DNA of 64,000 nt from Christensenellaceae bacterium (GTDB lineage Bacteria > Bacillota > Clostridia > Christensenellales > CAG-138): the NCBI GenBank assembly GCA_963675855.1, contig OY776633.1:172318-236317 (forward strand), read 5' to 3'. Under the pieces are notes generated by a model. The model saw only the letters and a list, made by a program, of their open reading frames with translations. It was not told the DNA's origin and did no database searches. Each line of letters opens with the position of its first letter. Position 1 is the first letter of the stretch. The position numbers and the translations under genes are program-made. Shown here one piece after another: positions 1,872 to 59,096 of this stretch.

Positions 1872-2390
1872 CTACTCTTCCGCCTGCATCCGCGCAAGTT
1901 CCGCCTGACCCTGCTTATTGGTAAACATATGCTTGCGGTAGACGATAAAGCGGTACACGGAAAACTCTGTTACGAAGTTGATCACCATGGTGCCGAGCAG
2001 CACGACGTAATAATTCCAGCCGATGCGCGTCAGCGCCTCGCCCCACCAGGTGGACAGCGGCGTGAAGATCAGATAGTAGATGATGATCTGCGTCATCGCC
2101 AGCGGCACGTTCTTGGCGGACTTGAACGTGAACTTCCGGTTGACCGTAAAGTTATACAGCACCGAGAGCGTCAGCGCGATGAGGTAACTCGGCCAGTACG
2201 GCCAGTGGATCGTCTCGTTCATCAGCGTAAACGAAGCGAACTGAATCACGCCCGCCGAGGCGGAGAAGACGAGGAATTTTAATCCCTGAATGATATTCTG
2301 TTTCTTCGTGAGCTTCACCGGCGTTTTCCCGCTCGGTTCCTGCACAGGATTCTGTTCGTTCTGTTCCGTAGTCTTATCCTCCGATATCAT
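1872..2390 (-). CDS. GtrA-family membrane protein
   Basis: 172 aa with 4 predicted TM segments and the motif NRKFTFKS typical of GtrA-like proteins. Its start overlaps the upstream stop by 4 bp (ATGA). Confidence 0.75.
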   Translation of the reverse strand: MISEDKTTEQNEQNPVQEPSGKTPVKLTKKQNIIQGLKFLVFSASAGVIQFASFTLMNETIHWPYWPSYLIALTLSVLYNFTVNRKFTFKSAKNVPLAMTQIIIYYLIFTPLSTWWGEALTRIGWNYYVVLLGTMVINFVTEFSVYRFIVYRKHMFTNKQGQAELARMQAEE

Positions 2391-4297: not shown

Positions 4298-4460
4298 AGA
4301 AACCGCCTTCCTGTTTCGCCGAAATTCCTTTCCGCATGTTAAACGGCGAATTACCATGTGATGTTACATTGCATTCTTTCAAGATTATATCGGGTAATCC
4401 GTAAATTGTCATCCAAAAAGAAAAAAACTCCCGTTTCATCGCTATTCTTCATGTGCTAAA

Positions 4461-7139: not shown

Positions 7140-7727
7140 GTGAGGTCCGCCTTGCAGCACGCCGCACAACAACTCTATGAACAGCTTCAAGCCAACCCCG
7201 TCGCCGCCACCGCCGGAAACATGGAGGAACTCGCGCTCGCACTCGAATCCGACTGCCGCGTGGTGTTCCTGCTCATGGGAGACGTGCTCGACATCGGCGA
7301 CCTGACGCGCCGCGTCCACGAGCGCGGCAAGCTCTGCGTGATCCATCTCGACCTGATCGAAGGGTTCTCGAGCAAGGAGATCGCCGTGGACGCCGTTTGC
7401 GAACAAACGGGCGCAAACGGCATCATCAGCACGCGCGGCGCGCTGATCAAGCGGGCAAAGCAGCTCGGCATGGCCGCCATCCAACGCGGGTTTATGCTCG
7501 ACTCTCGCTCCCTCAATAGTTTCGAGCAGCAGATCCGGCAGAGCAGACCGGACTTCGTCGAGATTCTGCCGGGACTTTTACCCAAAGTGATCGCCACGCT
7601 GAAAGAACGCGTGGATGTACCCATCATCGCGGGCGGGTTCATCCACGAAAAGGAGGACGTCATCGCCGCCCTGCAGGCGGGCGCGCTCGCCGTATCCGCA
7701 TCCAGCCCGAATGTCTGGACGCTGTAA
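7140..7727 (+). CDS. glpP: glycerol-3-phosphate-responsive antiterminator GlpP
   Basis: 195 aa. VFLL.GD...L...V...GK.V.IHLDLIEG and ILPG..PK.I......PIIAGG are the GlpP signature. The start codon (GTG 7140) is uncertain. Confidence 0.75.
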   Translation: MRSALQHAAQQLYEQLQANPVAATAGNMEELALALESDCRVVFLLMGDVLDIGDLTRRVHERGKLCVIHLDLIEGFSSKEIAVDAVCEQTGANGIISTRGALIKRAKQLGMAAIQRGFMLDSRSLNSFEQQIRQSRPDFVEILPGLLPKVIATLKERVDVPIIAGGFIHEKEDVIAALQAGALAVSASSPNVWTL

Positions 7728-7756
7728 TGTCGCGGCAACACGTTGCGACATAATAA

Positions 7757-7782
7757 AAACCCGCCGTACGGCGGGTTTTTTG
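7757..7782. terminator. bidirectional intrinsic terminator (glpP / NAGPA-like gene)
   Basis: CCCGCC-GTAC-GGCGGG hairpin with an A-run before and a T-run after. Confidence 0.8.
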
Positions 7783-7804: not shown

Positions 7805-10279
7805 TCAGCCATCGCCGTCGTTAATGATCGTGTCGTCTTCGGACGGCACCTGTTCGGAATAGCCCCATATAAGCCCGTCGGGAATGCGGCGCTGGTAGGT
7901 GTCCTCGATGGTGCCTACGTGCGTATTGCCGTGGCGGTTGAGCTGCTCGCCCATAAACAGCATGCAGGCCGAAACGCCGCCGTCGAGGTTGTACGCCTCC
8001 ACGCAGCCCTGTTCGATAAACAGTTCGCGAAACGCCGTAAGGCGCATGCCGTAGCTGTATTCTTTCTGCCGACCGTCCACGACGATCGCAACGAAATGCC
8101 CGGGTTCCACCATGCCGATGCCGGTGCGCGGGTTGGTCTCGTTTCCGATGCGGCGCGTGTGGTCGATGTCCTCGTCGGTAATCGCGCCGTCGCGAAGCAA
8201 GGTCGGCCCGAAGGAAAACGCGTCCCGTACGCCGTCCATGAGCAGTTCGTATGCGTTTGTTTCGCGCGGGGAGAAGATGCGCATCGTCATATCGGGGTAC
8301 ATGGCCAGCACGTCGCACTTGGCGCTGTTGAGAAACACCTTGCCCTCGCGGATGAGGATGCTCTTATACTGCGTGTCGCTTTCCACAAGGTTGTCGCCCG
8401 TGATCATAAGCACGGCCCTGCTGCGCCGCGCGAGAATCCACGGCTTGATCGCGCCCGCTCCGTTGCGGTTTACCGCCGCCTGCACGGTGCCGAAGCTGTT
8501 GACCTCCCGCATGCGGATGTGCGCCACGAAGTAGACGAGCGGATAGGTCTTGTCCGCATAGTTGACATACTCCGTTTCGACGCGGTCGATCATGATGGAG
8601 AGCGTGTCGGTGCGGTATTCCCAGTGTCCGTTCTCCCCGTCAATGATGATCACCTCGTCCGGGTCGTCCACCGAACGGTAATACTCGTCTTGTGCGGAGT
8701 CCGCAACAGGTTCCGGCTCCGGTTCGGGCGTCGGGGTCGGTTCGGGCGTGGGTTCCGGCGTCGGCGCTGCCGTCGCCGTGAGCGCGGGGGTTTCTTCAAC
8801 CGCCTCCTCCGCCTCGTCCTGCCCGCCGTAGTAGTACAGCGCGCCGGATGCGGCAAGGCAGATGAAAAACGGCAGCAGCGAGAGCACGACGGCTCCGCCG
8901 CGGCGCCTGCCGCGACGCTTTTTCAAGCCGTACGTAAGCAGCAGGAGCACGGTCAGGATCAGCCCCAGCGCGGACAATCCGGCAAGCAGCGGAAACGTAG
9001 GAATAAGCGTCTCATCTTCATTCGCCGGCGGTTCCGCCGCTGTCTGCGCCGCAGGTTCCTGCGTGGGTTCCGGCGTGGGTTCCGGCGTGGGCTCCGGCGT
9101 CGGCGTCGGTGTCGGCGTCGGGTCGATATAGCCGCTGAGCGAAAGTTTGTCGATGTTCTCAAACAGGTCGTTCCCGGCCGCGTCCTCGCCGATCTGGCTC
9201 TCCGCAAGCTGGAAAACGGACGCGGGGTTCAATTCGGTTTCATACACATGCCGCGTTGTGCAGAGCGTAAACGCATCCGCGGCGAGTTCCAAAACGCTCT
9301 TTCCCCCAAGGCCGTTGAGCGGAGTGGAGAAATCGAGCGCCGTCGTTCCAAGCTCGGACGCGAAGTAGATCTTCTGTACGCCGGTGTCCTCCGCCGCGCG
9401 GGCGGTGTATTCTCCCGTGAACTGCGCAGCGCCGTCCAGCGCCGTTTCGTCGTCGATATGCGTCACGATGACTTTCGGCGCAACTGCGGCGACGCACGCT
9501 TCGAGATAGTCCAGCGTCGGCCTCCTGCCCCATTCGTTTCGCACCATGGTATACGGCTCGTTGTTATCGCTGTGAAAACTGCCGAAAAACGGATAGTTCT
9601 CGCAGCCCGCGCGCCAGAGCGCCGCAAGCAGCTCACCCTGCGCTGCGCGGGTACCGCGGGACACGACGACCAGCGTCGTGGGAATGTCGTAGTTGCTTGC
9701 ATAGACCGCCATGACGCCGAAAAATTCATCGAGCGCGGTGACGGATGTGGACGCGACGACGAGAAGGTCCGCCGCCCCCGAAGGGCTCCACCGCTGAACG
9801 TCCCGCGGCAGTTCGCCCGCGCCGTAGACGGCAAGCGCGGAGAGCGACGTTTTGCCGAGCATCGTCACCACGACGCGAGACACGCCCTCGACAAGCGGAA
9901 AATACACGTTGACATAAGGTTTCGCAACGTCTTCCGACAGCGCCGTACCCGCCGCGTCGAGCTGGGTTACGGTATACTGCGTCGTGATATCGTACCACTC
10001 CAGATACAACCCCTGCGCGTCTAAAGGCAGGTCGATCTGTATCGTCTGTTCCTTCGTAAAGGACTGGTAACTCTCCACAAGGCCGTCGGTGATGCGGTAC
10101 TCTTTGCCGGTCAGTTCCTCCGGCAGCGTAATCGTGCATTCGTCCGTGATTGCGGCGGCCTGCTGCGTCGGAATGTCCGCGTCCTCTGCGTGCGCGGCGC
10201 TCTGCGGAACCAACCCGGCCAGCAGGAAAAGCGCGCATAAAACCGCCATGAGCCGGGAGCGAACATGTGTTTTTTTCAT
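7805..10279 (-). CDS. membrane-tethered two-domain exoprotein A: signal peptide, beta-sandwich + degenerate LmbE/PIG-L-like domain, P/T/E linker, 2-TM hairpin, P/T/E linker, phosphodiester glycosidase (NAGPA/DUF2233) domain
   Basis: The C-terminus (FGPTLLRDG...VEPGHFVAIVVDGR...AYNLDGGVS) matches DUF2233/NAGPA. Central region LLAGLSALGLILTVLLLLTYGLKKRRGRRRGGAVVLSLLPFFICLAASGALYY forms two TM helices. Paralogous to 15831..18308. Start at MKKTHVRSRL (10279) is uncertain; the ORF extends to 10342. Confidence 0.75.
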   Translation of the reverse strand: MKKTHVRSRLMAVLCALFLLAGLVPQSAAHAEDADIPTQQAAAITDECTITLPEELTGKEYRITDGLVESYQSFTKEQTIQIDLPLDAQGLYLEWYDITTQYTVTQLDAAGTALSEDVAKPYVNVYFPLVEGVSRVVVTMLGKTSLSALAVYGAGELPRDVQRWSPSGAADLLVVASTSVTALDEFFGVMAVYASNYDIPTTLVVVSRGTRAAQGELLAALWRAGCENYPFFGSFHSDNNEPYTMVRNEWGRRPTLDYLEACVAAVAPKVIVTHIDDETALDGAAQFTGEYTARAAEDTGVQKIYFASELGTTALDFSTPLNGLGGKSVLELAADAFTLCTTRHVYETELNPASVFQLAESQIGEDAAGNDLFENIDKLSLSGYIDPTPTPTPTPEPTPEPTPEPTQEPAAQTAAEPPANEDETLIPTFPLLAGLSALGLILTVLLLLTYGLKKRRGRRRGGAVVLSLLPFFICLAASGALYYYGGQDEAEEAVEETPALTATAAPTPEPTPEPTPTPEPEPEPVADSAQDEYYRSVDDPDEVIIIDGENGHWEYRTDTLSIMIDRVETEYVNYADKTYPLVYFVAHIRMREVNSFGTVQAAVNRNGAGAIKPWILARRSRAVLMITGDNLVESDTQYKSILIREGKVFLNSAKCDVLAMYPDMTMRIFSPRETNAYELLMDGVRDAFSFGPTLLRDGAITDEDIDHTRRIGNETNPRTGIGMVEPGHFVAIVVDGRQKEYSYGMRLTAFRELFIEQGCVEAYNLDGGVSACMLFMGEQLNRHGNTHVGTIEDTYQRRIPDGLIWGYSEQVPSEDDTIINDGDG

Positions 10280-10426
10280 TTGCGTGTACATGTTATCAGT
10301 ATACACAGACGGGGCCGTATAAGTCAAAACGATTGTAATCAAACACCAATTTTATTATAATTTATTCATACACGCTCGACCGGCTGCCGCGCGTGCCGCC
10401 TGATATGATGATAAGGAGTATATCCG

Positions 10427-11917
10427 ATGACATATAAAAAAGCCCTCTCCGCCGTCCTGTTGCTTGCGCTGATGTTTGCGTTCGGATGCACGGGCCAATC
10501 CCCGGCCGAACCCGCGGCGCCTGAAGGCACGGACATAACCGCGCTCGATCGCAGCAGCGCCGGACTGACCGACGCCGACCTTGCCGCGCTCTACGCCGAG
10601 ACGGAACTGATCTATCTCGACTTGCGCGGAAACGAGCTCTCGCCGGAGGCTGTCGGCGCGCTGACTGCCGCGCTGCCGAACTGCGTGATCCTCTGGAGCG
10701 TCCCGCTCGGTTCCGCGCGTTTCGACAGCGGCAGTGAAGAGATCGTTCTTCCCCCGGATACGGACGCGGCGGAGCTGGAACGCCTGAAGCTGTTTCCGAA
10801 TCTGACGCGCGTGGACGCGACCGCGCTTTCGGACGCGGCGGCAATCATGGCCGCCTCCGCCGAACTGCCGGACGTCGAATTCCTCTGGAACGTCGAAGTG
10901 CTCGGACAATCGTATCCTTCCACGACCGCCGAACTCGATCTGCGCGGCGCAGCAATCGGCGATATCGACGTGCTCGCCGAATCCCTCTCAGCGTTTTTGA
11001 ATCTGAAAACCGTCGACCTGACCGGGCAGACACTGCGTGACGAAGAGATGCTCGCGCTGACGCAGGCTCAGCCGGAGACGCTGTTTATTTGGGATGTAGA
11101 CCTCTTCGGCGTTTCCGTTTCCAGCAAAGAAATGGAGGCGGACATCAGCGATATGCCGGTGGACGACCTCGACGCGCTGCAGCGAAAGCTGATGCTTCTG
11201 CCAAGCCTGACACAGCTGGTCATGTGCAACTGCGGCCCGTCCGACGAAGAGATGGCGGCGCTTGCCGCGGCGGTTCCGGACGTGAAGTTCGTCTGGATGA
11301 TCCGCGTCGGGGGCTGGGAGATGCGCACGGACGTAAAGGCTTTCTCCAAGGGGAACCGCACGACCTTCGACGGCGGCGAGTTCGTCGGCGGAGTGACCAA
11401 CTTTTCCAGCGAAGACCTCGAACCGCTCAAATACTGCACCGACCTCGTCGCGCTCGACGTCGGCCACGGCAGCCGCATCACCGATCTGAGCGTTTTGCAG
11501 TATCTGCCGAAACTTCGTTTCCTGATCGTCGCGATGAACCGTATCGAGAGCATCGAGGACCTGAAGTACTGCCCCGAACTGGAATATCTGGAGATCTTCC
11601 AGAACTATATCTCCGACTGGTCGCCGCTGCTCTCGCTGCCGAAGCTGACGCACCTCAACTGCAGCACCAATTACGGCAGGACGGACGACGGGGACAAACA
11701 ATACCCCGACTACACCGTACTCATGCAGATGACGCAGCTGCAGCGCTTATGGGTCATACACGACAACCTCTCAAAAGCGCAGATGGAGGAACTCCGCGCC
11801 GCGCTGCCGAACGCCGTAATCAACAACATCGGAACCCACTCGACTTCCAACGACTGGCGGGATAACGACCTTTACCGGGAAATGCAGGAGCTGTTCAACC
11901 TGCCTTTTTCAGAATGA
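10427..11917 (+). CDS. leucine-rich-repeat lipoprotein
   Basis: AAGGAG RBS. Signal peptide with lipobox (LMFAFGC). Repeated LxxLxxLxL/NxI units (LPKLRFLIVAMNRIESIEDLKYCPELEYLEIFQNYISDWSPL). Confidence 0.75.
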   Translation: MTYKKALSAVLLLALMFAFGCTGQSPAEPAAPEGTDITALDRSSAGLTDADLAALYAETELIYLDLRGNELSPEAVGALTAALPNCVILWSVPLGSARFDSGSEEIVLPPDTDAAELERLKLFPNLTRVDATALSDAAAIMAASAELPDVEFLWNVEVLGQSYPSTTAELDLRGAAIGDIDVLAESLSAFLNLKTVDLTGQTLRDEEMLALTQAQPETLFIWDVDLFGVSVSSKEMEADISDMPVDDLDALQRKLMLLPSLTQLVMCNCGPSDEEMAALAAAVPDVKFVWMIRVGGWEMRTDVKAFSKGNRTTFDGGEFVGGVTNFSSEDLEPLKYCTDLVALDVGHGSRITDLSVLQYLPKLRFLIVAMNRIESIEDLKYCPELEYLEIFQNYISDWSPLLSLPKLTHLNCSTNYGRTDDGDKQYPDYTVLMQMTQLQRLWVIHDNLSKAQMEELRAALPNAVINNIGTHSTSNDWRDNDLYREMQELFNLPFSE

Positions 11918-11959
11918 ACGCAATCCCGTAACCCCAACGGACCACCATAGGAGTGACTC

Positions 11960-13255
11960 ATGTTTAACAAATTCGCCCTGACCCTCGTCCTCGCGCTGAG
12001 CCTGGCCGCGCTGTTCGCCGTTTCAGGCTGCGCGCCAGCCGTGGAAGCGCAGGAGCCGGCGCAGGAAACCGCCGTCCCGACGCAGGCTCCGACGCCGACG
12101 CCGACGGCCACGCCTTCCCCCACCCCGACGCCGGAACCGACCCCGACGGTCATCACCATCGGCGCCATCGGCGACATCATGATCATGCCCCCCCAGATCA
12201 GCGGCGCGTATATCGACGAAACGGGCGAGTATGACTTTTCTCGCAGCTTCCTCGGGGTCAAGAACCATTTCCTCTCGGTCGACCTCATGTGCGGCAACCT
12301 CGAAACCACCCTGTCCGGCGAGGAAGCCGGATATTCTAAAAAGAAACGCGAAGACGAGCCGGCCGACACCTTCAACGCGCCGGACGAAATCGTGGACGAC
12401 CTTATCGACATCGGATTCGATTTTTTAAGCACCGGCAACAACCACGTGCTCGACCGCAAAATGGAGGGGCTTCTGCGCACGCTTGACGTGCTGGACGAAA
12501 AGGGCGTTTACCACACCGGCACCGCACGCTCCAACGAGGAGCGCGATACGCCGCTGATCATCGATGTAAAAGGGATCAAGATCGGCTTCGTCGCTCCAAC
12601 GGAGATCATCAACAAGCGCGACCGCTATATGAACGACGAGGAGACGGAATATGCCGTCACCCGCCTGTATTCGCAGCAGGAGCGGCTGCTCGCCGAAGTC
12701 GCGGCCTGCAAGGAGGCGGGCGCGGATTTCGTCATCGCCTACCCGCACTGGGACAAGGAGCATCGGACAGCGGCGACGCAGCGTTCGCGCGATATGGCAA
12801 AGCTGCTGCTCGAAGCGGGCGCGGACGTGATCCTGGGTTCGCACCCGCACGTGGTGCAGGACATCGAATACGTGACCGTCGAACGCGACGGGCAGCCTTA
12901 TACGGGGCTCGTCGTCTACTCGATGGGCAACTTCATCTCCAACATGGCGGGAAAGACGGAGATCGACCCGCTCAAATACGGTCTGTACGTGCAGCTCTCG
13001 GTTGTGAAAGACGTTGACGGAACCGTTTCTTTGCAGAGCGCGTGCTATATGCCGCTGTTCGAGTTCTACCGCACCGTGGACGGAAAATACGTCCACCAGG
13101 TCGTCCCCGCGCTCGAGGACACCTCGCTGATCACCTCGTTTTCGGAACTGAACGCGAAGGAGATCAAGCGGGCCGGATACGCCCGGGAGTATGTAATCGA
13201 GCAGTGCACGACGGACGTGATCCCCGTGATGGACGACGCGGACTGGGTCAGATAG
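11960..13255 (+). CDS. CapA-family (PGA_cap, metallophosphoesterase-fold) lipoprotein, copy 1
   Basis: Lipobox AVSGC, PT-rich linker, then GDIM...GNLE...TGNNHVLD...HWDKEH...GSHPHVVQ...YSMGNFIS motifs typical of CapA-family proteins. Confidence 0.8.
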   Translation: MFNKFALTLVLALSLAALFAVSGCAPAVEAQEPAQETAVPTQAPTPTPTATPSPTPTPEPTPTVITIGAIGDIMIMPPQISGAYIDETGEYDFSRSFLGVKNHFLSVDLMCGNLETTLSGEEAGYSKKKREDEPADTFNAPDEIVDDLIDIGFDFLSTGNNHVLDRKMEGLLRTLDVLDEKGVYHTGTARSNEERDTPLIIDVKGIKIGFVAPTEIINKRDRYMNDEETEYAVTRLYSQQERLLAEVAACKEAGADFVIAYPHWDKEHRTAATQRSRDMAKLLLEAGADVILGSHPHVVQDIEYVTVERDGQPYTGLVVYSMGNFISNMAGKTEIDPLKYGLYVQLSVVKDVDGTVSLQSACYMPLFEFYRTVDGKYVHQVVPALEDTSLITSFSELNAKEIKRAGYAREYVIEQCTTDVIPVMDDADWVR

Positions 13256-13276
13256 CATAAACGCAACGATCAAAAA

Positions 13277-13302
13277 GCCACGGCAGACGCCGTGGTTTTT
13301 TA
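13277..13302. terminator. bidirectional intrinsic terminator (capA-like 1 / ligase-like gene)
   Basis: CCACGGC-AGAC-GCCGTGG hairpin with an A-run before and T6 after. Confidence 0.8.
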
Positions 13303-13346
13303 ATCGTTATAAATCAAATGTGTTAATATTTTGTCAAGCCGTCATG

Positions 13347-14831
13347 CTATTCCACCGGTTCGGTCTCCGGTATCGGTTCAGCTTTCAGAAAACGAAGGAC
13401 GAATCCCGCCGAAAACATGAACCAGATCCAAACCGTATTCACGCCGCCGTTGACAAACAGAAAATCCTCCATCATGCTTTCGCTCACCGTAAAGAGAAGC
13501 ATCGCGGGAAGCAGCCGGACGGCGAGCGTGTCCGCGTTTGTCAGACCGCCGAACGAGAACCTGACCGCCGCGACTGCAATGAGCACTAAAAATATCAACG
13601 CAAACAGCAATCCCACCACACCGAAGGAAACAAGCGCCCCAAGCAGCGAATTATGGAAGATGCCGACCGGCGACCCTTCCGGAAAATACGGTTTCATCAG
13701 GTCGCTGGCCACCGCGGGCCCGGTACCGATCGCCAGTATCTTCGGGTTTCCGGCAAGCCCCTTCAGCACGGCGGCCCAGATGTCGAGCCGGATGCGCATG
13801 CTTTCCATATCGGTGATGTCCCTCGCCGTCAGATCCGGCGTTTCATCGGCATCCTGCTGCAATGGCGTCAAAGCCTGCTCTTCCACGGGCGCCCCCGCCG
13901 CCGCGGCATAATCCGTTTCGGCAGAATAGGCGTCGTACGCGGAGCGAACCAGCCCCGTACCCAAATAGCACGCAGCGATCGCCAGGCACATCATCAAGGC
14001 GCTTATGGCGACACGCAGCGCGGCGCGCGCTTTTTTCATCCATGCGGCGCGGTTCAGCCAGACGTTGCTCAGCAGAAACGTTTCAAACCCGATCGCAACG
14101 CACGCGCCGATGATCGCCGTGCGGCTGTCCGTTAACACCAGCGCGGTAAAGCAGATCGCGCCGCCGATAGAAACGAGAATTCTGGGCAGGGCCTTTTTCA
14201 AACGAACCAGCAGATAAACCGTCAGTACGACGCCCGCCGCGCAGTAGGGCGCGCTTCTGTTCGGATTGCTGTCCAGCCACAGCCTGCCGCCATAAATACC
14301 GAATCCGGAAAACAACGCCGGCGCGCGTGTCTCGGCGTCCTTTACGAACACGGCGGTCAAGCCGACGGCGCTCAGCAGCGTCACCGCGGCGAGCGTCGTG
14401 ATCGCCAGTACCGTTAAAACGCGGGCCGCGCCTTTTTTTGAAAACGCATACGGAAACGAAAAGCATAGAAACGACGTCACGCAGACGCTGGCGAACCAAA
14501 GATAGGAATCTACGATATGCGCGCGTGAACGGTTCAGGACGACCGACGCGCACATCCAAAGGATGAAGAAAACCAGAAAGCGAATCTCCGGATATTTCAC
14601 ATAACGGCAGTCGTACGCAAGAAACGCGAAAACGATTACCGATGCCGGGAAAAACACATACAACAGCGGCGTTCCGTTGTCGAGCGGCACCAGATACTGG
14701 ATCGCGTCGAACGCGGCGCAGCAGGCAAGCGCCAACAGCGCCAGAAACCTCCAGGAGAGAACGCCCCCCCGGCAGAATGCGAGCGGATCCGCCGCGCGCT
14801 TGTTTTTTTCACCGGATTTTTTCTGAATCAT
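13347..14831 (-). CDS. O-antigen ligase / Wzy_C-like polytopic membrane protein
   Basis: 494 aa with about 10-12 TM segments and a larger loop (ETDYAAAAGAPVEEQALTPLQQDADETPDLTARD). Contains a TDSRTA motif as in Wzy_C-family proteins. Confidence 0.65.
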   Translation of the reverse strand: MIQKKSGEKNKRAADPLAFCRGGVLSWRFLALLALACCAAFDAIQYLVPLDNGTPLLYVFFPASVIVFAFLAYDCRYVKYPEIRFLVFFILWMCASVVLNRSRAHIVDSYLWFASVCVTSFLCFSFPYAFSKKGAARVLTVLAITTLAAVTLLSAVGLTAVFVKDAETRAPALFSGFGIYGGRLWLDSNPNRSAPYCAAGVVLTVYLLVRLKKALPRILVSIGGAICFTALVLTDSRTAIIGACVAIGFETFLLSNVWLNRAAWMKKARAALRVAISALMMCLAIAACYLGTGLVRSAYDAYSAETDYAAAAGAPVEEQALTPLQQDADETPDLTARDITDMESMRIRLDIWAAVLKGLAGNPKILAIGTGPAVASDLMKPYFPEGSPVGIFHNSLLGALVSFGVVGLLFALIFLVLIAVAAVRFSFGGLTNADTLAVRLLPAMLLFTVSESMMEDFLFVNGGVNTVWIWFMFSAGFVLRFLKAEPIPETEPVE

Positions 14832-14873
14832 ATCGGCCCCTCAACTGACCCGTGTTTCATGTTCGCAACCGTA

Positions 14874-15782
14874 TCATGCTCTGCGGCGTACATCTTCGGC
14901 GATGCGCATAATCACGTTTGCGTCGACCGATTCGTCAAATTTGCGCGCAAAGAGCATGCCGCTGTCCATCAGCATATCGAAGTCCGCGTCCTTCAGCGTG
15001 CGCGGGGACGCGCCGCCGCCCGTCCAGTCTACGTACCGCATGGTCGCGGCTTGTTCGTCGTCAAAACCCATGAACGCGCGTTTGTCCATAAACGGCGAAT
15101 TGTAAAGCGCCGTCTGGAGCCATATCTCGTCCGCGCAGGAGGAGTTTCTATAAAATCTGCGGTATGTTTTGATCTGTTCGAGCGCGTGGAGCGCGAACGC
15201 GTGCGTAATGGAAAACCAGACGCCGCCCTTTTGAAAAACGACGCCGCTGTTTCTAATCCGGTTCACGCCAAGCAGCTTTTGTATTCTGCCGCTCAGCGGC
15301 GAAAGGCGCCTGTGCAGCTTCAGGGCAAACGGATCGACCGGCCGCGTCCAGTGCCACAGCCCGATCCTGCCGAAGATGACTTCCGGCTTTGCCGTTTCCC
15401 GTTCGAAGGACACAAACTCCCGCCCCGCGTGTGCGTCGAAAAACGCGTGTATCTCACGCTGCGGTTTCAGGGGAAGGTCGACGCCGGAGAGCATATGGTA
15501 AAAGACATGCTCTTCTTCCGCCGCTTTTGCAAGCAGGGAGACGATCACGTCTATGAATACTTCGCTGCCCCAGCGCGCGTCCCGGCGCGGCACGAAGTAC
15601 ACGCGGCTGTTCGGCGCGGCGGCGCGCAGCGCATCCTCCGAAAAACCATCCGCTTTCCGGTCGATGTGCAGATAGATGTCGTTGCGGTCGTTATCGAGCA
15701 GGGCAATAAGGGTCAAAAGTTGATGCGGCTTATTGTGCGCCGCGATCAGATACGCATGTCGTCCGGCGTTCGTGCGTTCCAT
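14874..15782 (-). CDS. glycosyltransferase family 14-like (core-2/I-branching beta-1,6-GlcNAc-transferase family)
   Basis: 302 aa. N-terminus AYLIAAHNKPHQLLTLIALLDNDRNDIYLHIDRKA and later SGVDLPLK, WFS are typical of bacterial Branch/GT14 proteins. Confidence 0.7.
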   Translation of the reverse strand: MERTNAGRHAYLIAAHNKPHQLLTLIALLDNDRNDIYLHIDRKADGFSEDALRAAAPNSRVYFVPRRDARWGSEVFIDVIVSLLAKAAEEEHVFYHMLSGVDLPLKPQREIHAFFDAHAGREFVSFERETAKPEVIFGRIGLWHWTRPVDPFALKLHRRLSPLSGRIQKLLGVNRIRNSGVVFQKGGVWFSITHAFALHALEQIKTYRRFYRNSSCADEIWLQTALYNSPFMDKRAFMGFDDEQAATMRYVDWTGGGASPRTLKDADFDMLMDSGMLFARKFDESVDANVIMRIAEDVRRRA

Positions 15783-15830
15783 ACGCTGCTTCCTTTCCCG
15801 TTTGACGGAAACCTTCCTGTCGATCGCCTG

Positions 15831-18308
15831 TTAAGCTTCCGGCGACCAGCCCTGCGGCACGAGCCCGGCGTAAAGCCGCGGTTCGTCCTCGCCCGGAACC
15901 AGTTCCGAGTATCCCCACAGGAGCTGGTCCGGCACCGATCGGTAGTGGTTTTCCGCCCGGATGTTGATGTATTCGCCCATAAACACCATGGTTGCGGACG
16001 CGCCGCCGTCGAGATTATACGCCATCACGCAGCCTTCGTCCAGAAACATCTGCGCAAATTCCGGCAGCAGCACGCCGTGGCTGTAGCGCGGCAGCCGCCC
16101 GTCCACGACGATGGCTACGAAATGACCGGGTTCCACAAGCCCTAGCCCCGCCCGCGGATTGATGCGCGACACGCGGCTCTGTTCGATATCCGCGCTGATG
16201 ACGCCGTCCACGATCAGCGGCGGGCCGAAGGCGAACGTGTCGCGCGTGCCTTCTTCAATTTCGTTGAGCATGGTCTCGTCTTTTGCGGAATAGATGCGCA
16301 TGGAAAAGTCGTCCGTCAGCGCCATGGCCGACTGCTGCGTCATCGCCCTGAAAACGCGGCCGTCCCGTATCATCAGCCCGCGGTTGTAGTCCGAGTGAAG
16401 CAGGTTGTCGCCCGTTATACCGAACACCGCGCTGTAACGCCGCGCCATCGTACAGGCGTCGACCGGGTCGCGCCCGTTCTGCCGCGCCGAGCCGAAGCCG
16501 GAACGGTAGGAGTCAACATCACGCTCGTAGATGTGCGCCACATAGTACGCCAGCATCGGATCTGTACTCGTAATACGCCGAATTTCGATGCCGAGCGTAT
16601 CGTTGCGGTATTCGAAGACGCCGTTTTCATAGTCGAACACGACCACTTCCTCCGGCTCGCCCTCCTGTCTAAAATGCGCGGCGAACGGATCGGCTGTCGG
16701 CGTAGGTACGGGCGTCGGCGTCTCCTCGTGCACGGTGGCTGTCACCGTCGGCTGCGGCACAGGCGTAATCTCCGGTTCGGGCGTCGCAGCGGGCGTATTC
16801 GCGCGGAGGATCAGCGCCGCGCCGAAGAGAACGAGCAGTCCCCCGGCAACCGCGCCGGCGACCCGGAGCGACGTCCGTTTTTTCTCCGGTTCGCGGCCGC
16901 GCCTAAACAGGCAGAGCATGATAACGGCAATGCCGAGCGCGGTGAGCCCCGCGCCGATCGCGTAGCCCGTTTGGGAATACATCCAATCGTTCGCGATATC
17001 CGCGCTTTCGTTTTCATTTTCCCGCGCCTCGGCCGCGTCGGCCGTCGGCTGCGGTTCCGGCGTGGCGGTCGGCTCCGGCGTAACGGCGGCGCTTGGAAGC
17101 GCCTCCGGCCCGGAGAGCGAGGAAAGCAGCGCATAAAGCTCCTTTGCGCTCTCCGCCTCGGTCGCGGCGATATCCTCCGGGAACGTTTGGATAAAATACG
17201 GGGTGTCGGTTACCAGCGCGCGGAACACCTGGTACGTCGTGTAACGGTCGAACGCCTCCTGTGCAAGCTCCAGCGCGCTCATGCCGCCGAACGCGGAGAT
17301 CGGCGCGCCCGTATCGTACAGCGGGCAGCCGCCCGACTCGAGATGCTGATAGACCGCCCGCACCTGCCAAACGCCGTAAAGCCGCTCGCTGACATATTCC
17401 TTCGATTCGTCCGCCGCCTGCGCGGCGGCGAGCGGCACATGCGTCGCGGCGAGCAGGTGCATGCCGTCTCCGCCTTCGCCAAGCGCGGAGTGGGTGATCA
17501 GCGTGTCCGGCCGGTAGCGGCGCAGCAGCTGGATGAGCCAGTTGGACAGGTCGGCCTTATCGATCAATCCATACATTCTTTTCACTTCAAGCACGGTCCG
17601 GTAATATTGGAAATTTCCGAATACCGGCTGTGTGCGCGAGCCGAGCGCGTACAGGTTTTCGATGGCCTGCTGCTGCGCCTGCCTGCTCTCCGAGGAGAGA
17701 AACACGATCGCCGCGTCGCCGCCGCAGAAGAACGGAAGCAGGCTGCCGAAGTCGTACGCCTCGTCGCTTGTATGCGCGGCGATGAGCATCGCCTTGGGCT
17801 GCGTCTGCTGCGCGGCCATGACGCACAGATTCTCCGGCGGGGCCGCGGCGTCGAACACGCGCAGTTCGCATACGGAGAACGCCTTGTCCCCGGCGATGCG
17901 CACGGCGGCGCATCCTTGTGGCAGCGCGAAATACTCGTTGAGCAGATCGGCATTGGCAGCCTTGCTTTCCAGCACCGCGCCTGCTTTGTCCAGCGTTTCG
18001 ATTCGCGCGGACTCCGGATATTCGTACCAGGCGACGTAGAGCCCCTCCGCCCCGTCGGCGAGGGCGATTTCGATCGCCTCTTCTTTTTTAAACGAAATGC
18101 GGGAGTTGTACCGCCCGTCCGTCAGGCGCGCGTCAAACGCCATTGATCGCTCCGGCAGGACGAAGGCGCATGCTCCCGTCAGGTCGGCGGCCTCTTCTCC
18201 GCCTTCGGCGCGCGCCGCGCCAAAGACAGGCAGTAAAAGGCAAATCAACAACAAAAAAGCGGCCGCGCTCCGAAAAAACTTCGAATGGTAGACGCTTTTT
18301 TGATTCAT
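15831..18308 (-). CDS. membrane-tethered two-domain exoprotein B: signal peptide, beta-sandwich + LmbE/PIG-L-like domain (AHTSDE motif retained), linker, 2-TM hairpin, linker, phosphodiester glycosidase (NAGPA/DUF2233) domain
   Basis: Paralog of 7805..10279 with an identical VEPGHFVAIVVDGR segment. LIAAHTSDEAYDFG and HSALGEGGDGMH resemble the LmbE AHPDDE/HPDH motifs. AGGAG RBS before the ATG at 18308 (MNQKSVYH). Confidence 0.75.
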   Translation of the reverse strand: MNQKSVYHSKFFRSAAAFLLLICLLLPVFGAARAEGGEEAADLTGACAFVLPERSMAFDARLTDGRYNSRISFKKEEAIEIALADGAEGLYVAWYEYPESARIETLDKAGAVLESKAANADLLNEYFALPQGCAAVRIAGDKAFSVCELRVFDAAAPPENLCVMAAQQTQPKAMLIAAHTSDEAYDFGSLLPFFCGGDAAIVFLSSESRQAQQQAIENLYALGSRTQPVFGNFQYYRTVLEVKRMYGLIDKADLSNWLIQLLRRYRPDTLITHSALGEGGDGMHLLAATHVPLAAAQAADESKEYVSERLYGVWQVRAVYQHLESGGCPLYDTGAPISAFGGMSALELAQEAFDRYTTYQVFRALVTDTPYFIQTFPEDIAATEAESAKELYALLSSLSGPEALPSAAVTPEPTATPEPQPTADAAEARENENESADIANDWMYSQTGYAIGAGLTALGIAVIMLCLFRRGREPEKKRTSLRVAGAVAGGLLVLFGAALILRANTPAATPEPEITPVPQPTVTATVHEETPTPVPTPTADPFAAHFRQEGEPEEVVVFDYENGVFEYRNDTLGIEIRRITSTDPMLAYYVAHIYERDVDSYRSGFGSARQNGRDPVDACTMARRYSAVFGITGDNLLHSDYNRGLMIRDGRVFRAMTQQSAMALTDDFSMRIYSAKDETMLNEIEEGTRDTFAFGPPLIVDGVISADIEQSRVSRINPRAGLGLVEPGHFVAIVVDGRLPRYSHGVLLPEFAQMFLDEGCVMAYNLDGGASATMVFMGEYINIRAENHYRSVPDQLLWGYSELVPGEDEPRLYAGLVPQGWSPEA

Positions 18309-18404
18309 GCTGTTTTGCTCCTGTCGCGCCGCGCGCAATCCGCGGCTGATTAGTTTATTGATTAAATATCTCCTCCGCGCCCGAATGCGCGAACTGTAGA
18401 ATGT

Positions 18405-19745
18405 TTAAGTTTCCGGAACCGCCACCGTCTCGGGGTGGAACGTGTAGACGTTTTCCGCCGCGTCCGTGCCGATGCGCTTGAGCATCTTATCGTACGCCGC
18501 CTGGAAGCGGTCCAGCGCGTAGCGCGTGCGCGGATCCACGATGGAGAAATCCGCAAGCGCCTGCTGCAGCGGTACGACGGAATACGACATGATCTTCTCT
18601 TCGTTGTAGAAGTTATAGGTGTAGGTCAGCAGGTAGCTCGCGTCGATGGACGCGAGTCTGTCCCGGTCCCAGTCGTAGGTAAAGCTGAGGTTGAGGATGA
18701 TGTTGTTCAGGCTCTCCGTATGGATTGCGCTCGACATAAAGTTGCCCAGGCCGTAGGCGATGAACACCGTCTTTTCCGCACCGTCCACGGTTACGGTACG
18801 CTTCTCCATGCTTTGGAGGGAATGCGTATGGCTCATGACGACCGCGTCCACGCCGAGCGCCGCCGCGTCGTTCGCCGCCGTGAGCTGGCGCCTGCTCGGT
18901 TCGTCGTCCTTCTCCGTACCGTCGTGCAGGTACATGACGATCACCTTCGCGCCGGACGCGCGGGCGGCGGTTACGTCCTTTTCGAGACGTTCGGCGGAGT
19001 AGTAGTTCATCGTCCACTTCGCGTCCTCGCCGTCGAGCGCTAGCTTATATTTGTTCGTAAAACCCGTATACGCCAGGATGGCGACCGGAACGCCGTTGAC
19101 GTCGCGAATGTAAACTTCGTCCACGGCTTCCTTCGCGGCGTTGGTGCCGAGCGCGGTGAATCCCATGTTTTGCAGCTTTTCCGCCGTTTCAAACGCGCCC
19201 TCTACGAGGAAGTCCATCGCGTGGTTGTTGGCGGTAAACAGCACGTCGAACCCGTCGTTTTTGAGTTCCTCGGCGTAGGATACCGGCGCGTTGAAGCCTT
19301 CGATGGAGCCGTTGAGCGGCGCGCCGTCGTACATGCAGGCTTCGAAGTTGCCTAACAGCACGTCCGCACCCGCAAGTTCGTCCCTGATCTGGGCGAAGTG
19401 CTTGGAAAAATCATACGTGCCGTCTTGTTGCAGTGCGTCCTCCATCTGCCCGTCGCAGCACATCAGGTCTCCGACAAAGCGCATTGAAAACTCCTGCGTC
19501 CCGGTCTTCTTTTCCGGTTCGGGCTGCGGCGTATCCGTCGGCAGGGGCGTTTCCGCCGGCGCGGACGTGTCCGCCTGCTGACCGGCCGTTTCTTCCGCAT
19601 CGGCCACGGCCTGCGCCTGTTCCGGCGCGGCGGCAGGCCTGCCGCCCGTGACGAGAAGGTTGATCGCAATCACGATTGCAAGCACGAGCAGCACCGCGTT
19701 GACGATCACCACTTTTTTCAGTTGATTCGGTCCTAGTTTCTTCAT
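18405..19745 (-). CDS. CapA-family (PGA_cap) membrane-anchored protein, copy 2
   Basis: N-terminal TM anchor, P/T/E-rich linker, then GDLM...GNFE...TANNHAMDF...MYLHDGTE...MSHTHSLQ...YGLGNFMS. Heads a minus-strand gene string running 19745 to 13347. Confidence 0.8.
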   Translation of the reverse strand: MKKLGPNQLKKVVIVNAVLLVLAIVIAINLLVTGGRPAAAPEQAQAVADAEETAGQQADTSAPAETPLPTDTPQPEPEKKTGTQEFSMRFVGDLMCCDGQMEDALQQDGTYDFSKHFAQIRDELAGADVLLGNFEACMYDGAPLNGSIEGFNAPVSYAEELKNDGFDVLFTANNHAMDFLVEGAFETAEKLQNMGFTALGTNAAKEAVDEVYIRDVNGVPVAILAYTGFTNKYKLALDGEDAKWTMNYYSAERLEKDVTAARASGAKVIVMYLHDGTEKDDEPSRRQLTAANDAAALGVDAVVMSHTHSLQSMEKRTVTVDGAEKTVFIAYGLGNFMSSAIHTESLNNIILNLSFTYDWDRDRLASIDASYLLTYTYNFYNEEKIMSYSVVPLQQALADFSIVDPRTRYALDRFQAAYDKMLKRIGTDAAENVYTFHPETVAVPET

Positions 19746-19965
19746 AAATTTCCTCAGTGTTTATGATAGAGACAAGCGCCGTAATTGTCAAACCCGCGCG
19801 CCAAAATGCCGCATGTTGTTCACATCCGGTTCTATAAGCATATATGGTTGACCGCCCGAAAGAGAGCGCCGCCCGAATTGCAGATGTTTTCGGGCGGCTT
19901 TGCCCAATTTCCGCTTTTATCGTATAATACCAGGTATCAATCGATCGAGCGAGGACTCTAATATC

Positions 19966-21330
19966 ATGATTCGAGCGCTGTCTCTTCTGTTAGCCGCCGT
20001 TATGCTGCTGCCCGCCTCCGCCGACGTCGGCACCGCCCCGCCGGACGCGGACATCATCGCGCCTTATTATATCGTCGCGGACGCAAACGACCCGTCCGTC
20101 GTGTTTTATGAACGCGACCCGGACGAGCGCTGCATCCCCGCCAGCACGATGAAGATCATGACCTGCATCCTGACGCTGGAACTGGTGGAAGACCTTGAGG
20201 AGACCGTCGTCGTCACGAAGCAGGCCGCGGGCATGTCCGAACGAAATTCGCTCATGCACGTCGTGGCGGGCGAAACGCTGACCGTGCGCCAGCTGCTCTA
20301 CGGGCTTATGCTCAATTCGGGCAACGACGCGGCGTTGCTGCTGGCGAACTATGTCGCAGGCAGCGTAAGCGATTTTTGCGACCTGGCCAACGCAAAGGCG
20401 GCAGAGCTCGGCATGGCGGACACGCATTTTCTCAACGCAAGCGGCGCGTACCGCGGCGGGCAGTATTCGACCGCGCGTGATATGGCGGTTCTGACCGCCT
20501 ACGCGCTGAAAAACGACATGTTCCGCACCCTGATCGGCACGGCGCGCTATACGATCGAGGCCAACGACGTACGCAAAGAACCCATGGAGATGGTCAACTC
20601 CAACCGCCTGATCTCGGACGACCCGGACAGCGACTGCTACAGCGATCTCTGCATCGGCGGGAAGACCGGCAGCACGACGGTCGGCGGCCAATGCCTGATC
20701 GCAGTCGGTCAGCTCGACGGCGCGGAGGTAATCGTCGTGCTCATCGGCGCGGACGACTACACACACCGCGACGCGAACAAGCGTATGCCGCGCGTGTTCC
20801 AAAACGCGAAACTCTTCATCGAATACACGCTGCAAAACGACTATGCGTTTGTCTCTGCCGAAACGCTAGGTTACGCGTACTCCACCGACGTAACGGTGGA
20901 AGGCCTCGTCGAACCGGTCGGCATCGCCGCTAAGTTTGAAGAGGACGCGGGCGTCCGCCTGCCGAAGACGATTGTCGATCCGGCGTTTTCGGACGTCTCG
21001 CTGCTCGAGACCGAAACGCAGGTGACCGCCGCCCTCTCGTCCGCCGAGGCGGGGGACGTCGTAGGCACCATCTCCTGCTCCTACGCCGGATACGCGCTGT
21101 TTGCAGGCGAACTTGTTGCCGAAACGAGCGCGGTTCCCGTGCCGACGCCCAGCCCCGTCCCGCCGGAACCCACGCCGGAACCCGAGGAAAAGCCGGCATT
21201 GTCCGATCTGTTTTCAAACACCGGCACGGGTTTTCTGATCTTTGCCGGGGTCAGTCTTGTGCTTCTGATCAGCCTGATCAGCCTGACCGCGGCTTACGCG
21301 CGCCGCACGGTGCGCCGGAGGAGACGGTAA
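19966..21330 (+). CDS. serine-type D-Ala-D-Ala carboxypeptidase (PBP5/S11-like) with C-terminal PT linker and TM anchor
   Basis: SxxK (ASTMKIMT), SGN (NSGNDAA) and KTG (GGKTGST) motifs. GAGGA RBS before the ATG at 19966. The C-terminus PVPTPSPVPPEPTPEPEE is followed by a TM segment and an RRRRR tail. Confidence 0.85.
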   Translation: MIRALSLLLAAVMLLPASADVGTAPPDADIIAPYYIVADANDPSVVFYERDPDERCIPASTMKIMTCILTLELVEDLEETVVVTKQAAGMSERNSLMHVVAGETLTVRQLLYGLMLNSGNDAALLLANYVAGSVSDFCDLANAKAAELGMADTHFLNASGAYRGGQYSTARDMAVLTAYALKNDMFRTLIGTARYTIEANDVRKEPMEMVNSNRLISDDPDSDCYSDLCIGGKTGSTTVGGQCLIAVGQLDGAEVIVVLIGADDYTHRDANKRMPRVFQNAKLFIEYTLQNDYAFVSAETLGYAYSTDVTVEGLVEPVGIAAKFEEDAGVRLPKTIVDPAFSDVSLLETETQVTAALSSAEAGDVVGTISCSYAGYALFAGELVAETSAVPVPTPSPVPPEPTPEPEEKPALSDLFSNTGTGFLIFAGVSLVLLISLISLTAAYARRTVRRRRR

Positions 21331-27765: not shown

Positions 27766-27921
27766 AAGGGATGCTACCGTGGCGGAGCATGGGTAACGCT
27801 TGACTTCTTCACGGTGGTTTCGATGCGGATTTCCTGCCTGTCACAACGAGTTAAAAAGGGAAGCCTGCACGAAGCGATCCGCCGCCGTCCGCTCCTGCGG
27901 CGGAGGGGATGCGGCCGTTGC

Positions 27922-27995
27922 GCGGGTGTAGCTCAGTGGCAGAGCTCCAGCTTCCCAAGCTGGCTATGTGGGTTCGATTCCCATCACCCGCTCCA
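27922..27995 (+). tRNA. tRNA-Gly (anticodon CCC), CCA encoded
   Basis: Manual fold: acceptor GCGGGTG/CACCCGC, D-arm GCTC-AGTGGCA-GAGC, anticodon stem CCAGC/GCTGG with loop TTCCCAA, T-arm GTGGG-TTCGATT-CCCAT, then discriminator T + CCA. Confidence 0.9.
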
Positions 27996-28089
27996 GCATC
28001 CAAAAAAGGTGCACAACATATTTTGCCCGCTGCCGTTACAAATTCCGCATGCGGGTAACAACAGACGATTTTTAGGAGGAATGGTTGTA

Positions 28090-29301
<1,212 letters not shown>

Positions 29302-37021: not shown

Positions 37022-37036
37022 GCTGCGCCTCCCCTC

Positions 37037-37771: not shown

Positions 37772-37832
37772 CCCACTTCTCCCTTCAGATATGACGGTAA
37801 CGATTCTGCCTGAAATTATCGAATTTCTTATT

Positions 37833-53894: not shown

Positions 53895-53901
53895 GGAGAC
53901 A

Positions 53902-59032: not shown

Positions 59033-59050
59033 GCAAAAAGAAAGCAATAT

Positions 59051-59083: not shown

Positions 59084-59096
59084 TTGGCTTGTTTCG

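Follow-up and report, generated by a model that had tools for sequence, protein, structure and literature searches.

A clade-specific envelope locus of Christensenellaceae-like Clostridia combines NAGPA-like and CapA-family surface proteins with a GT14 glycosyltransferase and may trim a wall glycan

What does a gene cluster do when each of its genes comes from a known family and the combination resembles nothing that has been characterised? This question is raised by a locus on contig OY776633.1 of a Christensenellaceae bacterium, a member of a family that is prominent in gut and anaerobic-digester communities. Within the stretch analysed here (the window, 64,000 nt in its entirety), the locus genes run from 7805 to 21330 and encode two large NAGPA-like proteins (NAGPA_A and NAGPA_B), two CapA-family proteins (CapA1 and CapA2), a leucine-rich-repeat (LRR) lipoprotein, a GT14 glycosyltransferase, a Wzy_C/O-antigen-ligase-like protein and a Peptidase_S11 D-Ala-D-Ala carboxypeptidase (S11). 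A sequence-only reading of the window had taken these genes for an envelope system that builds or trims a sugar-1-phosphate-linked surface polymer or glycoprotein. The follow-up described here points to a clade-specific envelope locus of Christensenellaceae-like Clostridia that acts mostly at the outer face of the membrane. Our preferred reading, which we put forward tentatively, is that the locus encodes a module at the cell surface which binds a wall glycan bearing N-acetylglucosamine (GlcNAc) and trims it, and to which a decorating transferase in the cytoplasm is coupled; it probably serves to trim or recycle such a polymer and not to build a capsule of sugar phosphates.

The genes and families on which this reading depends were readily recovered. 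An open reading frame (ORF) check reproduced the coordinates of all seven genes of the earlier reading along with the S11 gene, and the domain families that it had named (DUF2233/NAGPA, PGA_cap, GT14 and Wzy_C) were all found by Pfam, a family call here being a Pfam-A match above the curated gathering score. The DD-carboxypeptidase gene said to diverge from the cluster at 19966 is likewise a Pfam Peptidase_S11 match.

The same genes travel together in relatives. Close homologues of NAGPA_B number 66, all from uncultured Clostridia, and a scan of one genome per species yielded 47 loci, many of them labelled Christensenellaceae or Christensenella. In about 20 species-level metagenome-assembled genomes of Clostridia, from gut and digester, the genes recur in the order S11 - (CapA2) - NAGPA_B - (LRR) - GT14 - (Wzy_C) - CapA1 - (LRR) - NAGPA_A, where parentheses mark optional genes and the proteins are only 58-76% identical. 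This co-localisation is far above chance. Genes were counted by phmmer mapping of the eight window proteins, with loci that had enough flank as denominators. By this measure GT14 is the most constant partner of NAGPA_B, lying beside it in 27 of 31 loci (from 33 distinct NAGPA_B loci) and in all 22 loci of the main group. CapA1 was present in 20/22 loci, NAGPA_A in 19/21, S11 in 12/14, Wzy_C in 13/22 and LRR in 13/21. CapA2 was intact in 6/20 and present as fragments in 4/20. Hence, although both copies of what had been called a duplicated gene pair are present in the window, the second CapA gene is not a stable part of the cluster.

It seems to us highly improbable that this adjacency is meaningless, that is, that unrelated envelope genes lie together by shared ancestry in one family. 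The syntenic loci do all come from one clade, the accessory genes are variable, and GT14 homologues of 45-49% identity occur in other contexts. Nevertheless, the order survives down to 58% protein identity despite changing flanks on the NAGPA_A side and despite insertions and losses, genes being gained or lost within the cluster. In addition, the gaps are short, one promoter-like/terminator-like pair brackets capA2 - NAGPA_B - GT14 - Wzy_C, and the LmbE-like and NAGPA-like domains exist both fused, as in the window, and split. The latter amounts to a Rosetta-stone link, since two loci (L047 and L054) carry LmbE-like genes followed by an unfused NAGPA-only gene.

At the centre of the locus stand the two NAGPA-like proteins, whose paralogy was confirmed by an end-to-end alignment (33% identity over 834 columns, E = 2e-116). 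Both consist of a signal peptide, a CBM32-like domain, an LmbE-fold domain, a PT (proline-threonine) linker, a transmembrane hairpin, a second PT linker and a NAGPA-fold domain. In NAGPA_A the signal peptide covers residues ~1-31, the linkers 387-409 and 503-524, and the hairpin ~424-484; in NAGPA_B the signal peptide spans 1-34, the CBM32-like lectin ~36-160, the LmbE-fold domain ~170-400, the hairpin ~447-506 and the NAGPA-fold domain 540-825. Hydropathy and sequence inspection resolve the hairpin into two helices and a short basic loop, and the N-terminal module measures ~400 residues. Because of the signal peptide and this two-helix topology, both heads of each protein are placed outside the cell, and by the same methods six of the eight locus proteins are exported and membrane-tethered. 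The identical stretch noticed earlier, VEPGHFVAIVVDGR, is indeed common to both proteins (residues 724-737 of NAGPA_A and 725-738 of NAGPA_B), with 38 of 42 DNA positions identical. Since the two genes reach at least 76% DNA identity in a single 165-nt stretch only, recent gene conversion between them was rejected, and the shared stretch is attributed to selection. NCBIfam holds no specific model for NAGPA_A, NAGPA_B or GT14.

An AlphaFold2 model of NAGPA_B residues 540-825 (predicted local distance difference test, pLDDT, 80) gave significant Foldseek matches to NAGPA/DUF2233-type structures only (6pki, 6pkg, 6u11, 6pku, 6pky, 3ohg, 5h3k and 6ozd), with E ~1e-11 and template-modelling scores of 0.60-0.69 for the NAGPA and 3ohg entries and weaker scores for 5h3k and 6ozd. 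With human NAGPA, the 'uncovering enzyme' of mannose-6-phosphate, and with DUF2233 (6pku, 6pki, 3ohg) the locus proteins share the fold, the Asp, the Ser and a downstream Arg, and like the human enzyme they are membrane-tethered on a stalk or linker. They differ from it in that a transmembrane hairpin connects the domain to a lectin and a dead LmbE module in one protein, and in the active-site loop. All solved NAGPA homologues have DGGGS, whereas NAGPA_A has DGGVS (residues 766-770, nt 7984-7970) and NAGPA_B has DGGAS (residues 767-771, nt 16010-15996), the third Gly being Val in all NAGPA_A orthologues and Ala in all NAGPA_B orthologues. It is absent from 92 of 93 motifs in the fetched related loci. 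An exhaustive HMMER search with the NAGPA domain of NAGPA_B retrieved 6072 cluster representatives at a cut-off of E <= 1e-3, of which 170 pass E <= 1e-30. Of the 150 nearest, 137 bear the motif, and in 131 of these the third Gly is missing; six only retain it, the residues at loop position 4 being V, S, A, Q, I, L, R and others. Therefore, a loop described as strictly invariant from bacteria to man, with glycine amides that cradle the phosphate (PMC13474241, 2026), has been changed consistently across a bacterial subfamily of considerable size (~170 clusters at E <= 1e-30). The same paper reports that the human D286A, G288A, G289A and S290A mutants are inactive.

Other residues of active-site type are conserved. 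D767, S771 and R790 are invariant in the NAGPA_B domain, the first and second corresponding to the catalytic D286 and the loop S290 of the human enzyme; R790, ~20 residues past the loop, aligns with a conserved Arg of 6ozd and is a putative equivalent of the phosphate-binding human R316. Across the 150 diverse representatives a set of polar residues (D, S, R, H, N and a further R and D) is near-invariant. We read the NAGPA-like domain as an active enzyme with a putatively reshaped leaving-group pocket, although it may be inactive, and the DGGxS subfamily as a whole probably has a different leaving-group specificity. With the pocket altered, a phosphate aglycone is not to be assumed, and the annotation 'phosphodiester glycosidase' should be transferred to this subfamily with caution. 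About half of the DGGxS members among these nearest 150 representatives are long fused proteins of 650-900 residues, and one has 1225.

This loop bears directly on an alternative that we hold to be unlikely, a specific form of the earlier reading, in which a polymer or glycoprotein linked through sugar-1-phosphate is covered and uncovered: NAGPA would cleave GlcNAc-1-phosphate diesters (for example a GlcNAc-1-phosphate-N-acetylmuramic acid linkage unit, or a teichoic-acid-like chain) and CapA phosphoesterases would act on the exposed phosphate. The retained fold and the catalytic Asp, Ser and downstream Arg fit such chemistry. The replacement of the phosphate-cradling Gly, at the position where G289A inactivates the human enzyme, argues the other way, as does the absence from the window of Stealth, LCP and other sugar-1-phosphate transferase genes.

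The N-terminal module tells a different story from the NAGPA head. Residues 36-400 of NAGPA_B were modelled with a pLDDT of 94 as a beta-sandwich part, which matches CBM32 and fucose-lectin (fucolectin) modules in Foldseek, and an LmbE part, which matches 4xm0, 2ixd, 6p2t and 1q74 (E ~1e-8 to 1e-7). Residues ~170-400 of both proteins share the fold of the LmbE/PIG-L deacetylases, such as MshB (1q74), BshB (6p2t) and diacetylchitobiose deacetylase (4xm0), but the window proteins are degenerate and extracytoplasmic, and neither has a PF02585 (PIG-L) match in Pfam at E <= 0.01. The earlier label 'LmbE-like' thus holds for the fold, as Foldseek and the homologues attest, and fails for the Pfam family and the catalytic motifs. 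In MshB the AHPDD(E) motif provides two zinc ligands, His and Asp, and the Asp that acts as general base. This general base is absent from all 60+ fused homologues, and the fused proteins have also lost the first of the two His in HxxH. NAGPA_B reads AHTSDE at 178-183 and GDGMH at 280-284; in NAGPA_A every catalytic motif residue is gone (ASTSVT at 176-181, with no HxxH counterpart). Even near orthologues differ at the putative zinc-ligand positions (AMTADE, SYPSDE, GMA, GMS). Stand-alone homologues keep AH(P/C)DD(D/E) and GHxxH, namely P0063-P0066 and the genes in L006, L044, L046-L048 and L054; for P0063-P0066 the similarity to MshB extends to the sequence (E = 1.7e-9), and they are annotated with PF02585, as are a few fused homologues (P0057, faintly). 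Because the catalytic motif residues are lost in the fused proteins, the domain is regarded as a degenerate enzyme, and the most plausible reason for its retention is a role in binding GlcNAc glycans. It would be a natural example of an LmbE deacetylase that became a likely glycan-binding pseudoenzyme upon fusion. Two fused members of the DGGxS subfamily, P0194 and P0295, seem to retain intact LmbE motifs.

A degenerate domain in every fused protein raises the alternative that NAGPA_A and NAGPA_B are wholly non-catalytic: double-headed, membrane-anchored lectins, made of two pseudoenzymes and a CBM, that hold membrane and wall together or arrange the CapA and LRR lipoproteins. This idea is quite improbable in our judgement. 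It draws on the loss of the LmbE catalytic residues and the variable zinc ligands, on the Ala that NAGPA_B carries at the G289 position, just as the inactive human mutant does, and on the tether-like architecture of long PT linkers and a transmembrane hairpin. It does not sit well with the near-invariance of the active-site-type polar residues across the 150 representatives, nor with loop position 4 being fixed in each orthologue group. Furthermore, conservation is higher in the NAGPA domain than in the dead LmbE domain: NAGPA_B orthologues are 71-84% identical in the former as compared to 54-68% in the N-terminal module, although P0002, the closest homologue, has 80% identity in that module.

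The CapA-family proteins were found to be paralogues as claimed (31% identity over 340 columns, E = 6e-43), and the PGA_cap match in CapA1 covers profile positions 1-254 of 255. The sole solved PGA_cap-type relative in our search of the PDB was MslH (8gq9, profile E = 1e-8), which was deposited under the name 'poly-gamma-glutamate synthesis protein'. MslH has a calcineurin-like fold with one bound Ca(II), on which it depends to epimerise the C-terminal Trp of a peptide (PMC10406935), and its discoverers have proposed CapA as the epimerase of poly-gamma-glutamate (PGA) synthesis (PMC8179263). Invariant residues of CapA1 are D72, N113, E115, N160, N161, H162, D165, H263, E267, H295 and H297, of which E115, N161, H162, D165, H263 and H297 correspond to MslH E44, N87, H88, D91, H259 and H295. 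These metal and dyad equivalents are invariant in 17 sequences (CapA1, CapA2 and 15 orthologues). The position of MslH H261 is Asp in CapA1 and Gly in CapA2, and the equivalent of MslH D11 (GD72 in CapA1) was assigned by motif only. The canonical metallophosphoesterase motif I (DxH) is absent from both, which read GDIM and GDLM, respectively. Because of this absence and an epimerase as solved relative, the earlier term 'phosphoesterase' stands as a label for the calcineurin-like fold and not as a supported activity.

These results bear on the sugar-1-phosphate alternative as well. On its side are the calcineurin-like fold of PGA_cap proteins, with weak matches to 2',3'-cyclic-nucleotide phosphodiesterases and YfkN, and a parallel in Bacillus subtilis, where ShfP is an extracellular calcineurin-like phosphoesterase with lipoteichoic acid as its proposed target and PhoD, from a related clade, breaks the phosphodiester bonds of teichoic acid. 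In some members of the ShfP family a NAGPA domain is fused to the enzyme. That fusion resembles the pairing of CapA and NAGPA genes in our locus, but ShfP and PhoD belong to the Metallophos/PhoD families rather than to PGA_cap, which lacks DxH, and the link here is one of neighbourhood, not fusion. Against it, we found no PGA_cap protein demonstrated as a phosphoesterase, MslH being the only biochemically characterised relative found, and literature on the functions of the PGA_cap/CapA family yielded nothing specific besides the MslH and ShfP papers.

The MslH likeness favours a further alternative, the editing of peptidoglycan peptides, in which the CapA proteins would be extracytoplasmic peptide epimerases that act with S11 on stem peptides or on a poly-amino-acid wall polymer, and NAGPA_A and NAGPA_B would mainly direct them to the glycan strands. 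We rate it as less probable than the sugar-1-phosphate chemistry. The conserved MslH residues and the proposed PGA epimerase role of CapA speak for it, as do S11 in its constant position and the neighbours of distant homologues: an M14 carboxypeptidase with PG_binding_1 and LysM domains beside distant NAGPA_A-like genes, and elsewhere Ddl with a Mur ligase. On the other hand, the coupling of NAGPA_B to GT14 and the adjacency of nagA and nagB in relatives would be left unexplained, CapA2 is being lost in many relatives, and PgsB/PgsC-like genes are not in the window. The S11 gene also belongs to a conserved housekeeping block with EF-Tu, KsgA and FGGY, and synteny alone may account for its place beside the locus. 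Its product has a signal peptide, a PT linker and a C-terminal anchor, and in NCBIfam it is DacA/PBP4-like, below cut-offs. S11 is a constant neighbour whose membership in the system is uncertain.

The locus proteins share with CapA/PgsA and MslH a full-length PGA_cap match and the metal and dyad residues; like the CapA of PGA synthesis, they are membrane-anchored and extracytoplasmic. They differ in being paired with NAGPA-like proteins, with no PgsB/PgsC (CapB/CapC) or lasso-peptide genes within the 64-kb window. The locus thus sets PGA_cap proteins, a family with a known peptide epimerase among its members, in a wall context without PGA synthetase genes. At the capA2 site of several relatives there are short ORFs with CapA2 matches of 28-32 bits (L001:9645-9899, L004:9484-9837, L015:2433-2738 and L016:9529-9837), and several lineages appear to be losing CapA2 through decay into a pseudogene. 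Apart from the CapA genes, the window has at 38537-39670 (+) a gene for a canonical calcineurin-like phosphoesterase (Metallophos, E = 1e-12).

Whether the locus builds as well as trims depends on the GT14 and Wzy_C proteins. The best solved match of the former is human xylosyltransferase 1 (6ej7, E = 7e-7, residues 5-292 of 302), and since hydropathy shows neither a signal peptide nor a transmembrane segment it is placed in the cytoplasm. The matches indicate a GT-A catalytic domain with homology to C2GnT and XylT. The GT14 family includes xylosyl- and glucuronosyl-transferases, and with a xylosyltransferase as best solved match GlcNAc transfer is not assumable. The Wzy_C protein is polytopic, with ~10 hydrophobic segments by hydropathy. 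As in Wzx/Wzy polysaccharide and O-glycosylation loci (Wzy, WaaL and PglL types), it is encoded beside a glycosyltransferase; unlike in those systems, there is a single glycosyltransferase, Wzy_C is dispensable (missing from 9/22 loci), and the window has no flippase, priming enzyme, chain-length regulator or nucleotide-sugar genes. The absence of these pathway genes had been noted before and was borne out: Pfam scans of ~50 larger ORFs of the window gave no match for a Wzx flippase or a priming transferase, and none for LCP or nucleotide-sugar genes. Of the earlier alternatives, 'trims' is thus retained and 'builds' has little behind it. The proposed sugar-1-phosphate chemistry drew on three family names, which are weakened in turn by the DGG(A/V)S loop, the MslH epimerase and the xylosyltransferase match. 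The broader claim of an envelope locus that trims a surface glycan stands, with its domains recovered and its genes co-localised across relatives. The LRR lipoprotein is a probable scaffold or partner protein; distant LmbE-like homologues also have flanking LRR genes.

Our preferred reading of a surface trimming module can now be set out in full. Inside the cell, a lipid-linked precursor of the wall glycan would receive a GlcNAc-type sugar from the GT14 protein, aided by Wzy_C in those loci that have it, and would then be passed outward. The lectin and dead-deacetylase modules would dock NAGPA_A and NAGPA_B on a GlcNAc-bearing polymer, either peptidoglycan or a polymer attached to it, where the NAGPA-like head would remove a terminal GlcNAc-type residue. 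The CapA-family enzymes would work on the same polymer with LRR lipoproteins as scaffolds, and NagA and NagB would salvage the released amino sugar in most relatives. Both the substrate and the activities are proposed from sequence and models. The last step refers to nagA-nagB genes that, in at least 18 relatives, immediately follow NAGPA_A as part of a same-strand block of nagA - (CBM9_2 protein) - nagB - unknown 458-aa protein (for example L003:18089-22153, L004:19578-22484 and L042:6262-10239), with nagA called by TIGR00221 at 283.8 bits against a cut-off of 225.65. The reading also draws on the domain calls, topologies and fold models given above, on the contrast between the degenerate LmbE domain and the conserved NAGPA domain, on the recurring gene order with GT14 beside NAGPA_B, and on the split LmbE/NAGPA arrangement. 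The neighbours of distant homologues fit it too: besides the M14 carboxypeptidase, Ddl and Mur ligase genes already named, they include an M3-like peptidase next to the M14 enzyme, an intact LmbE-like gene with a CE4 deacetylase, and S41/S11 peptidases.

Several observations weigh against this reading. The nagA-nagB pair is absent from the window and from its closest relative, L036, and the genes that occupy that position in the window are GlpP-like, Ldh_2 and malic enzyme. The flippase and priming transferase needed to complete a GT14/Wzy_C pathway were not found nearby, the role assigned to CapA remains vague, and G289A kills the activity of human NAGPA, so that the NAGPA-like domains could be inactive. 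Moreover, the synteny is limited to one family-level clade and may partly be vertical inheritance, and the 45-49% identical GT14 homologues sit elsewhere after thyX-like genes and without NAGPA genes. Because of these homologues the GT14-NAGPA coupling is held to be clade-specific, and a broader coupling was rejected. A bolder version, to which we give very little credence, would make the NAGPA-like heads and CapA a 'reverse-LCP' system for wall-polymer release, which would cut a GlcNAc-1-phosphate-type linkage unit or a GlcNAc cap, process the remnant and feed NagA/NagB while GT14 re-caps inside. We know of no dedicated enzyme that detaches wall polymers at the linkage unit.

The aggregate data thus describe a cell-envelope glycan-processing locus whose genes each come from a known family and whose combination matches none of the characterised systems that we found, in line with the sequence-only reading, which had known of none. 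We found no specific literature on the wall or envelope chemistry of Christensenella or on bacterial NAGPA enzymes. The locus offers a clade marker for the envelope biology of Christensenellaceae and a defined eight-gene set for genetics in cultured relatives.

The genes are predicted to form three transcription units: capA2-NAGPA_B-GT14-Wzy_C, LRR-CapA1, and NAGPA_A, which is apparently monocistronic (Table 1). The first begins with capA2, ends with Wzy_C on the minus strand and has gaps of 96, 48 and 42 nt; the TTGACA-17-TATCAT site is its candidate promoter. A consensus scan of the divergent region between NAGPA_A and LRR found one -35/-10-like site facing NAGPA_A (10327-10298, -) and one facing the LRR-CapA1 unit (10333-10361, +), each with 10/12 consensus matches. 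Such sites are consensus matches only and not proof of a promoter, and the same holds for the other predicted signals. The two hairpins are likely bidirectional terminators, one separating the GlpP-like gene from NAGPA_A and the other CapA1 from Wzy_C. Rfam found no regulatory RNA in the locus, its sole match being a tRNA at 27922-27992.

Table 1. Genes and predicted signals of the locus (window coordinates)
Feature	Position	Strand	Length	Details
Hairpin AAAAACCCGCCGTACGGCGGGTTTTTT	7755..7781			GC-rich, A/T runs at flanks; read from intergenic sequence
NAGPA_A	7805..10279	-	824 aa	Pfam NAGPA/PF09992, 90 bits (cut-off 25)
Divergent promoter region	10280..10426			-35/-10-like sites both ways
LRR lipoprotein	10427..11917	+	496 aa	Pfam LRR_4; lipobox AFGC; internalin-like repeats
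CapA1	11960..13255	+	431 aa	Pfam PGA_cap/PF09587, 213 bits; lipobox VSGC; PT linker
Hairpin CCACGGCAGACGCCGTGG	13275..13300			A/T runs at flanks; between convergent CapA1 and Wzy_C genes
Wzy_C/O-antigen-ligase-like protein	13347..14831	-	494 aa	PF04932, 48.9 bits (cut-off 31.7)
GT14 glycosyltransferase	14874..15782	-	302 aa	Branch family, PF02485, 56.3 bits (cut-off 23.4)
NAGPA_B	15831..18308	-	825 aa	Pfam NAGPA/PF09992, 88.6 bits (cut-off 25)
CapA2	18405..19745	-	446 aa	PGA_cap, 174 bits; N-terminal membrane anchor
Promoter-like site TTGACA-17-TATCAT	19763..19791	-		18 nt upstream of capA2; 11/12 consensus matches
Peptidase_S11 D-Ala-D-Ala carboxypeptidase	19966..21330 (ORF from 19900)	+		Pfam, 152 bits; divergent

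More distant relatives show what else can be joined to these genes. One group keeps NAGPA_B, LRR and GT14 and has extra LmbE-NAGPA paralogues, and another has NAGPA_B and LRR joined to CotH, VTC and DUF4956 genes and a dockerin-bearing NAGPA protein. For example, at L002:14119-21939 (on the same contig as L032, with L043 similar), NAGPA_B and LRR are followed by a 1105-aa CotH protein (LTD, CHB_HEX_C_1, Fn3_assoc) and then by VTC, DUF4956, the dockerin-bearing NAGPA protein and a cohesin protein, an arrangement that hints at cellulosome-like display of a NAGPA enzyme. Two polytopic proteins (~550 and 606-642 aa) adjoin the NAGPA_B-type genes at each of L002:6159-9811 and L010:3815-7487; they are without a Pfam family, have a GT-C-like look, and are 52% and 27% identical between the loci. 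A conserved partner upstream of the distant LmbE/NAGPA genes was considered and rejected: the ORFs there (a lipoprotein, an M3-like peptidase and GT-C-like polytopic proteins) are mutually unrelated, and none occurs in the window.

Outside the locus, the other larger ORFs of the window are housekeeping genes by Pfam. A classic capsule or O-antigen locus was rejected in the absence of flippase, priming-enzyme and sugar-nucleotide genes, and a poly-gamma-glutamate locus was rejected with PgsB/PgsC missing from the window. Some 5 kb away from it, a GtrA-like small membrane protein is encoded at 1872-2390 (-), in a gene that shares 4 nt with the terminal part of the gene for a dCache-PAS-GGDEF diguanylate cyclase (2387-4357, -). 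GtrA proteins are linked to polyprenyl-phosphate-sugar handling, and this one could be relevant to the missing flippase. The GlpP-like (glycerol-uptake antiterminator-like) ORF at 7140-7727 (+), which abuts NAGPA_A, was recognised by eye, without Pfam or NCBIfam confirmation. An FGGY-family sugar/glycerol kinase lies at 26145-27644 (+), 5 kb past the S11 gene. Several ORFs of 200-420 residues have no Pfam family at E <= 1e-3 (58948-60207, -; 53094-54492, +; 36359-37813), some of which are perhaps mechanical ORFs. The tRNA gene mentioned above (+ strand, 69 bits in Rfam) is located inside the 5' extension of a mechanical ORF at 27814-29301; given this position and a length of 404 aa for EF-Tu in relatives, the true EF-Tu start is placed downstream of the tRNA.

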